Below are positions 78 through 516 of a DNA stretch of 42,979 bases, in pieces. Each line of letters opens with the position of its first letter. Within the stretch, counting starts at the first letter, position 1. Location: the NCBI RefSeq assembly GCF_003334815.1, contig NZ_QOWO01000032.1. One strand, given 5' to 3'. The DNA comes from Escherichia coli (GTDB lineage: Bacteria; Pseudomonadota; Gammaproteobacteria; Enterobacterales; Enterobacteriaceae). The notes under the pieces were generated by a model. That model was not told the DNA's origin and did no database searches. It worked only from the letters and a program-made list of their open reading frames with translations. Both the position numbers and the translations under genes were made by a program.

Positions 78-128
78 GATACTGCGCTGGATACTACAAA
101 CTACTTCCACCGAACCCACCGTCATTAG

Positions 129-145
129 TGGTGGGTCGTGCAGGA
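129..145 (-). other. tRNA-Lys 3'-end-like fragment in spacer (second copy at 417..433)
   Basis: 17-nt exact match (tggtgggtcgtgcagga) to the acceptor/T-arm 3' end of tRNA-Lys, then divergence. Same orientation as the real tRNAs. Confidence 0.5.
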
Positions 146-226
146 TGACTCGCTTCGCTCGCCCTACGGGCCGTTGCTGACGCAACGTTATCCTACACGC
201 TTAACATCTGTCTTCGATGTTAAAAC

Positions 227-302
227 TGGTGGGTCGTGCAGGATTCGAACCTGCGACCAATTGATTAAAAGTCAACTGCTCTACCAACTGAGCTAACGAC
301 CC
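227..302 (-). tRNA. lysW: tRNA-Lys (anticodon UUU)
   Basis: Reverse complement reads GGGTCGTTAGCTCAGTTGGTAGAGCAGTTGACTTTTAATCAATTGGTCGCAGGTTCGAATCCTGCACGACCCACCA, the canonical E. coli tRNA-Lys. Confidence 0.9.
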
Positions 303-305
303 GAG

Positions 306-381
306 TGGTGGGTGATGACGGGATCGAACCGCCGACCCCCTCCTTGTAAGGGAGGTGCTCTCCCAGCTGAGCTAATCACCC
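306..381 (-). tRNA. valT: tRNA-Val (anticodon UAC)
   Basis: Identical in sequence to the tRNA-Val at 2..77; lies 3 nt from the adjacent tRNA-Lys. Confidence 0.9.
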
Positions 382-516
382 GATACTACGCTGGATACTA
401 CAACTAACTATGTTAGTGGTGGGTCGTGCAGGATGACTCGACTTCGTCTCGCCCTTCGGGCCGTTGCTCATGCAACGTTATCCTTCACGTTTTACTACCG
501 CTTCCACCTTAGCGAT

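Follow-up and report, generated by a model that had tools for sequence, protein, structure and literature searches.

The window, that is, the whole 42,979-nucleotide stretch of Escherichia coli DNA analysed here, opens with four tRNA genes, all identified by ARAGORN on the minus strand. These are tRNA-Lys(UUU) lysT (517..592), the first gene of the operon, which also scored 79.2 bits with the Rfam tRNA model; tRNA-Val(UAC) valT (306..381); tRNA-Lys(UUU) lysW (227..302); and tRNA-Val(UAC) valZ (2..77), where the window ends. The K-12 annotation agrees for lysT, valT and valZ. The first 760 bases matched E. coli chromosomes at 99.9-100%, in a region flanked by cpoB on one side and more tRNA genes on the other. 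The window begins within the lysT operon of E. coli, of which it holds the promoter-proximal part, in the order lysT-valT-lysW-valZ. In the K-12 annotation lysY, lysZ and lysQ, which lie downstream of valZ and outside the window, complete the operon. The first-pass annotation had described the Val-Lys unit as tandemly duplicated, and the comparison bore this out: positions 1-99 and 305-403 were 99% identical, and the tRNA-Lys genes lysT and lysW were identical to each other.

Two of the spacers are long, namely lysT-valT (516-382, minus strand, 135 nt) and lysW-valZ (226-78, minus strand, 149 nt), while valT and lysW are separated by 3 nt (303-305). This short spacer reads CUC here and CC in K-12, O157 and IAI39, a 1-nt length polymorphism that sits at the junction RNase P must cut. 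Elsewhere in the window, the Rfam scan detected the CpoB/ybgF thermometer (RF02782, 142 bits) at 1519-1657 on the minus strand, in the pal-cpoB intercistronic region, as expected for the locus. It also returned naRNA4 (RF02564) and ES036 (RF02751) matches at 18221-18383 (minus), 22755-22825 (plus) and 40207-40249 (minus); one naRNA4 match scored 88 bits and two were just at the cut-off, while ES036 scored 75 bits. These matches have no relation to the tRNA-spacer elements.

The duplicated tRNA-Lys end and its family

Both long spacers were found to carry an exact copy of the tRNA-Lys 3' end. The repeat, TGGTGGGTCGTGCAGGAT on the plus strand and AUCCUGCACGACCCACCA in the RNA, is composed of two T-loop bases, the 3' strands of T-stem and acceptor stem, the discriminator base and the CCA. 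It occurs four times in the window: at 227-244 in lysW, at 517-534 as the last 18 nt of lysT and the left copy of a direct repeat, and, by sequence match, in the spacers at 129..146 and 417..434 on the minus strand, where it runs in tRNA orientation (146-129 and 434-417). The first-pass annotation had reported both copies in this orientation and as exact, which stands; its length of 17 nt does not, as the match extends over 18 nt. The copies exceed chance expectation, as it had asked to be checked, since 100 dinucleotide-preserving shuffles yielded no match with up to two mismatches allowed. In K-12, the 18-mer occurs ten times, all five tRNA-Lys genes of the operon having an element behind them. 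No tRNA cloverleaf was detected in the spacers by ARAGORN or by the Rfam tRNA model at E up to 1; a tRNA pseudogene was therefore rejected as a description of the present sequence.

tRNA-linked repeats (TLRs) are a family first described in 1978 (Egan & Landy 1978; Rudd 1999, as summarised in PMC8144298). Their hallmark is a stretch of 18-19 bp that repeats, without a mismatch, the 3' end of whichever tRNA or rRNA gene precedes them; K-12 holds 22 of them at 10 loci, with one to five per locus, and no function is known for them (PMC8144298). Each long spacer of the window holds one TLR (Rfam RtT, RF00391). The elements occupy the same spot as other members, directly downstream of a tRNA gene within a tRNA operon, beginning on the minus strand right after the CCA of lysT (516) and of lysW (226). 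They end in 18 of 18 nt of the cognate tRNA, as do all five K-12 sites, and they share the core that is also found in tyrT, arg, pro, ser and 5S contexts. The lysT operon is the five-copy locus of the family.

The covariance model supported this identification. The lysT-linked and lysW-linked elements scored 58.8 bits (417-585, minus) and 54.9 bits (129-295, minus) against the curated gathering cut-off of 45 bits, which all five lysT-operon sites of K-12 exceeded; the four tyrT copies reached 133-138 bits. The true alignment covered only the 3' ~75 model positions, that is, the core GGAUAACGUUGC-N4-GCAACGGCCCGnAGGGCGAG...GAGUCAUCC followed by the tRNA end, and the consensus alignment spans AACGUUGC..GCAACGGCCCGnAGGGCGAG..GAGUcAUCC. 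The RtT consensus possesses a T-arm-like 5' part of ~45 nt that the compact Lys type lacks, and the 5' half of the model was instead aligned spuriously to the tRNA body, with an insertion of 44 nt. This part of the alignment is an artefact of the compact Lys architecture and was not used. The two spacers were 88% identical to each other over 48 nt (158-205 versus 448-495). The sequence beside the copies, which had been described as unrelated and GC-rich, is indeed unrelated to the tRNA; it is not arbitrary, being the conserved TLR core.

RefSeq (PGAP) labels an 'RtT sRNA' only behind lysQ (L123 1685-1810; L126 2438-2563). The four inter-genic copies carry no label though they exceeded the Rfam cut-off in our scan, probably because these hits overlap tRNA genes. 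The spacer finding is thus the re-discovery of a known family, and as the family is present in the 1978 and 1999 literature, in Rfam and in RefSeq annotation, it changes little in itself.

Fold, covariation and possible origin of the element

The lysT-linked element, TLR-1 (417..516, minus strand, 100 nt), starts directly behind the lysT CCA and ends with the CCA of its copy, and the lysW-linked element, TLR-2 (129..226, minus strand), comprises 98 nt. Between the 18-bp repeats there are thus only 80-82 nt of conserved, structured sequence. The remainder of each spacer is the leader of the following gene, 35 nt for valT (382..416, minus) and 51 nt for valZ (78..128, minus). A/U-rich sequence follows both the tRNA CCA and the copy CCA.

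The predicted RNA fold, in both the minimum free energy (MFE) and the centroid structure, is a four-way junction in which a closing stem, P1, encloses the hairpins P2 (6 bp), P3 (4 bp) and P4 (short and variable). In P1, the initial 10 nt of the copy pair with CGUG(A/U)AGGAU, a strand lying further upstream, which leaves ACCCACCA as a tRNA-type 3' tail. For TLR-1 (all minus strand), MFE, centroid and pair counts placed the P1 5' strand CGUGAAGGAU at 480..489, paired to 425-434 with one A.G mismatch; the 8-nt tail lies at 417-424, and the conserved core (440..477) contains P2 (472-477/462-467), P3 (458-461/451-454) and P4 (446-448/440-442). In TLR-2 (minus strand), a 5' hairpin (216-224/200-208) precedes P1 (190-199/137-146, with a U.G pair), P2 (182-187/172-177), P3 (168-171/161-164) and P4 (157-158/152-153). 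The same architecture was obtained for all four inter-genic K-12 copies, each folded over the segment that begins directly behind the tRNA CCA and closes with the copy CCA. Folding of the spacers had been proposed as a check, and it returned stable P1-P4 structures: -34.7 kcal/mol (z -3.06) for TLR-1 and -38.7 kcal/mol (z -4.91) for TLR-2, both more stable than shuffled sequences. The antisense strands folded about equally well, and the folds alone therefore do not separate structure at the RNA level from structure at the DNA level. A small-protein gene, as in the case of tpr, was considered and rejected: the ~30-codon ATG frame of the lysT-linked copy starts in the unconserved P2 loop, which reads GUCA, GCCA or GUUA in other K-12 copies, so that the ATG is not kept.

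A core-pattern scan of one genome per bacterial species identified at least 120 loci. Among the matches listed, true copies were found in many Enterobacterales, in Orbaceae (Gilliamella, Zophobihabitans) and in Thioalkalivibrio, and degenerate or partial copies in Photobacterium, Marinobacterium and others; core matches in other phyla look like chance matches within genes. Across Gammaproteobacteria, what follows this one core is the 3' end of the cognate upstream gene, be it for a Lys, Tyr, Arg(ACG), Pro or Ser(UGA) tRNA or for 5S rRNA. Among the matches listed, 96 core copies had a same-strand tRNA within 520 nt upstream, and 80 of these ended in an exact 18/18 cognate tRNA end. The copy stays cognate where the tRNA differs between species, as with Arg in Hafnia and Pro in Gilliamella.

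For covariation, an alignment of 33 compact Lys- and Arg-linked elements was used, in which P1-P4 were paired in 89% of cells, as opposed to 27-46% with slid partners; the covariation is limited by the relatedness of these sequences. Double changes were observed in P1 at pair 14-81 (U-A in Lys, G-C in Arg) and at pair 18-77 (G-C to A-U in Hafnia), and in P4, where one pair occurs as GC, AU, CG or UA. P2 and P3 were invariant within the compact type, and the A.G mismatch of the Lys-type P1 was kept in 17 of 18 Lys copies. Over the listed copies of all types, P4 had 47 distinct sequences with many different stems, nearly all forming a hairpin at the same place. As judged from these sequences, the P1 stem covaries with tRNA identity (Lys, Arg, Tyr). 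The copy is therefore no loose fragment; it is base-paired and belongs integrally to an element under structural constraint.

Several other occurrences of the core were noted. In Brenneria roseae (L078), a TLR-like core lies directly upstream of a 5S rRNA gene, ~147 nt from the end of the locus, and is apparently placed in the 23S-5S spacer rather than downstream of 5S. In Arsukibacterium (L082, L098-L101), Alkalimonas (L061) and Aliiglaciecola (L090), a P2-P3 core ACGUCGC..GCGACGGCCCGAAGGGCGAA is found within arrays of small hairpins (e.g. CUAAAACGCCGGGAGCGUUUUAGGAC), with no tRNA or tRNA-end copy adjoining. Near-identical copies occur on several contigs of Arsukibacterium perlucidum (L099-L101), which suggests a related family of dispersed repeats.

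The junction between core and copy offers a clue to the origin of the element. It falls within the T-loop, where the four main host tRNAs share AGGTTCGAATCCT, and long-form elements carry the 5' half of a T-arm before the core. Furthermore, a full-length tRNA-Tyr pseudogene, the first gene after the tyrT promoter, contains the core exactly between GGTTCGA and ATCC. It was identified in C. werkmanii (L009), Citrobacter sp. FP75 (L017), Phytobacter (L085) and Kosakonia (L105). Its 3' acceptor strand has decayed. An identical D-loop change and an identical anticodon-arm change (GTA to GCA) are present in all four pseudogenes, which makes this an old, retained chimera. The pseudogene fits an event in which the core was inserted into a T-loop, that of a redundant tRNA copy, and it fits equally a deletion between two AAGGTTCGA repeats. 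A tRNA-derived origin of the element is plausible.

Presence and absence among strains

Comparison among strains, which had likewise been proposed, revealed precise presence or absence of the cassettes. In O157 644-PT8, IAI39 and TUM1226, TLR-1 and TLR-2 are both absent as units: the lysT-valT spacer measures 35 nt and the lysW-valZ spacer 51 nt. The former corresponds to 382-416, with one or two single-base differences in each strain, and the latter to 78-128, with a few strain SNPs, so that where a TLR is missing the leader forms the entire spacer. Over the operon, the empty spacers of 35, 51, 48 and 33 nt equal the sequence after the copy with few strain SNPs. All five sites are filled in K-12 and all are empty in IAI39, while TUM1226 reads empty-empty-filled-empty-filled. 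The number of tRNA genes also varies, O157 having four tRNA-Lys genes, one fewer, and a single filled site. Each TLR of the E. coli lysT operon is therefore a precise presence/absence polymorphism bounded by an 18-bp direct repeat, and the suggestion that the copies act as recombination substrates is supported by the ~100 bp between tRNA end and copy that are cleanly present or absent. It is the presence of the cassette that these repeats demonstrably alter.

The lysQ copy is bounded by a longer repeat of 54 bp, composed of the 18-mer and a 36-nt terminator. Downstream of lysQ in K-12 (L001 2136-2345, outside the window), the TLR lies between two identical Rho-independent terminators, a layout that matches the T1-TLR-T2 region of rrnB.

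A filled lysT-valT site with a similar downstream leader was also present in Citrobacter, Pseudocitrobacter and Phytobacter, and other Enterobacteriaceae displayed different mosaics of filled and empty sites. Since filled sites are shared with other genera, they are old; deletion between the repeats is the best explanation for most of the empty sites in E. coli. The frequencies within the species are rough, as BLAST coverage joins pieces of neighbouring repeat units: by this count, the filled lysT junction was present in 3586 of 5426 E. coli genomes and the full K-12 arrangement in 984 of 5426; the 2311 counted for lysW are a maximum. The all-empty lysT-valZ allele was matched in one piece in only 8 of 60 evenly sampled genomes. 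No cargo or integrase was found, the neighbours being tRNAs, cpoB and nadA in all strains looked at. The strains without cassettes keep the same tRNA genes with spacers of 33-51 nt, and the cassette is thus dispensable for tRNA production. The tyrT-linked rttR is itself listed as lost in IAI39 and E2348 (Skippington & Ragan, PMC3318445), and TLR loss may be correlated across unlinked loci, as IAI39 lacks the five lysT-operon TLRs plus rttR.

Related systems and possible roles of the cassettes

An RNA of the tyrT-tyrV operon, rtT, was reportedly described by Bosl and Kersten in 1991. The rtT/RttR repeats of this operon, 178 bp in length, have the same P2-P4 core followed by the cognate tRNA 3' end, and their closing stem also uses the copy (GGGGAAGGAU/AUCCUUCCCC). 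The annotated K-12 rttR RNA ends at the CCA of the tyrT copy. The tyrT copies differ from the Lys copies in length (175-178 nt versus 98-100 nt) and in having two additional hairpins 5' of the core, one T-arm-like and the other GA-rich. They form a tandem series behind the last tRNA and overlap the ORF tpr, whereas the Lys copies are single, lie between genes and have no conserved ORF.

A second group, RrA, RrB and RrF, consists of 5S-linked TLRs located between the terminators T1 and T2 of rrnA, rrnB and rrnD (PMC8144298). They share the core and likewise duplicate the 3' end of the upstream stable RNA, which here is the 5S end and not a tRNA end; in the 5S-linked copies recovered here from other enterobacteria, an upstream GGCAGUU is complementary to AACUGCC of the copy. 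RrB, of 173 nt, is processed and ends 3 nt past the 5S copy, and recognition by RNase E has been proposed (PMC8144298). The idea that the spacer copies serve as RNase processing sites accordingly has a counterpart in that paper for the 5S-linked members.

The lysT operon is transcribed as a single seven-tRNA precursor (Agrawal et al. 2014, PMC4176162), so that the cassette belongs to the 3' trailer of each tRNA-Lys. In the wild type, the transcript is separated by RNase P and not by RNase E, which can cut the long lysT spacers when RNase P is inactive (PMC4176162). The wild-type precursor yielded 'surprisingly few' intermediates, and RNase II and PNPase were proposed to remove the long Lys trailers (Agrawal et al., PMC4176162). 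That paper reported no discrete lysT-spacer RNA, and literature searches on a stable lysT-spacer RNA or on RttR function yielded nothing beyond Rfam-based annotation.

On this evidence, the TLR is probably a dispensable passenger cassette under structural constraint, with a terminal repeat that serves in 3'-end definition and in repeat-mediated loss or gain. The cassette of 98-100 nt, set exactly between the tRNA-Lys CCA and the end of the 18-nt duplicate, is transcribed within the lysT precursor as part of the 3' trailer of tRNA-Lys and is predicted to fold as a four-way junction. The duplicate may then give the excised cassette tRNA-like signals for 3'-end processing and protection; for the Lys cassette, we infer such signals from the tyrT rtT RNA, which ends at the CCA of its copy, and from RrB, which ends 3 nt past its own. 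At the DNA level, the tRNA end and the duplicate form 18-bp direct repeats, between which E. coli often shows a precise loss of the cassette. Gene conversion could plausibly copy the cassette to further tRNA genes of identical sequence.

It is rather unlikely that the cassettes are functional sRNAs that bind a regulator or other RNAs and whose level reports transcription of the tRNA operon. Such a role would agree with the covarying structure, with the wide distribution of the family, and with RtT homologues beside Lys and Asn tRNA genes that were detected as RNAs in Actinobacillus (PMC4986893). RrA, RrB and RrF possess GGA motifs and in vitro bind Hfq as well as CsrA, the processed RrB among them; however, the 19 tRNA-operon TLRs scored below 0.01 for CsrA binding and are predicted non-binders, and the sole functional claim for the tyrT rtT was withdrawn (PMC8144298). 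3'ETS-leuZ, like the TLR cassette, is a by-product of tRNA-precursor processing that may persist as RNA, and it has a demonstrated function as a sponge of sRNAs (Lalaouna et al. 2015, as cited in PMC8144298); it has neither a duplicated tRNA end nor the TLR core. The existence of natural E. coli strains without whole sets of cassettes, and the absence of a stable lysT-spacer RNA from the report on this precursor (PMC4176162), also argue against regulation.

The first-pass annotation had regarded the copies as remnants of unequal recombination during expansion of the array, that is, as passive scars with no structure or role of their own, beside which the adjacent sequence would be arbitrary. 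We consider this unlikely. In its favour are the duplicated Lys-Val unit and the differing tRNA number among strains; tandem units of trailer, TLR and copy occur in tyrT (178 nt) and in the lysine operons of Klebsiella and Pantoea (156-nt spacing), and the cassettes are dispensable. Scars would nonetheless not be expected to place one conserved core behind Lys, Tyr, Arg, Pro, Ser and 5S genes in many genera, to keep P1 and P4 paired through compensatory changes, which had already weakened this reading, or to retain an 18/18 cognate copy in Hafnia and Gilliamella. Rather than loose debris, the copies form the 3' terminal part of a conserved, structured and known element.

An aid to tRNA maturation, whether as RNase E entry sites or as folding insulators against mispairing of identical neighbours, is improbable. 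The cassettes are located mainly between identical tandem tRNAs (Lys-Lys, Tyr-Tyr, Arg-Arg), and both the A/U-rich sequence after either CCA and the RNase E cuts made when RNase P is inactive would suit entry sites; yet cassette-free strains keep the same tRNA genes, RNase P performs the separation in the wild type, and cassettes also lie after the last gene of an operon, beyond its terminator. Finally, although the core-copy boundary in the T-loop (GGTTCGA, core, ATCC), the tRNA-Tyr pseudogene of Citrobacter, Phytobacter and Kosakonia and the T-arm 5' half of the long forms recall attR remnants of integrative elements targeting the tRNA T-loop or 3' end, or else decayed tRNA pseudogenes, both are very improbable, as the ~100-nt elements bring no integrase or cargo and sit in conserved operons between cpoB and nadA with conserved flanks (on which ground a phage or island att remnant was rejected), occur behind 5S rRNA too, give no tRNA match in the spacers, and have the same core in five tRNA families, which cannot stem from independent decay.

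We therefore retain the reading of the TLR as a dispensable passenger cassette. Its strong conservation across genera despite a deletion-prone architecture could reflect a real, unnamed function. A more far-reaching form of the passenger reading, which we put forward only tentatively and hold to be possible though far from probable, is that TLRs are self-maintaining cassettes of stable-RNA genes whose duplicated 3' end lets them move. A break in one member of a multi-copy set of tRNA or 5S genes would be repaired from a TLR-bearing copy; the new strand would re-anneal at the second 18-mer, and the cassette would thereby be copied behind another identical gene, while slippage between the two 18-mers would remove it again. 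The four-way junction closed by the copy would make the transcript harmless, to be cleanly excised by the host machinery for tRNA and 5S 3' ends.

If true, this would explain the mosaic of filled and empty sites, the always-cognate end, and the persistence of the element across Gammaproteobacteria despite its deletion-prone design. The present analysis adds the covariation of P1 with tRNA identity, the spread of one core with cognate ends, and the repeat-bounded polymorphism. These three results provide handles for testing TLRs as selfish passengers versus regulators, and natural filled and empty alleles of the lysT operon already exist for such a comparison.
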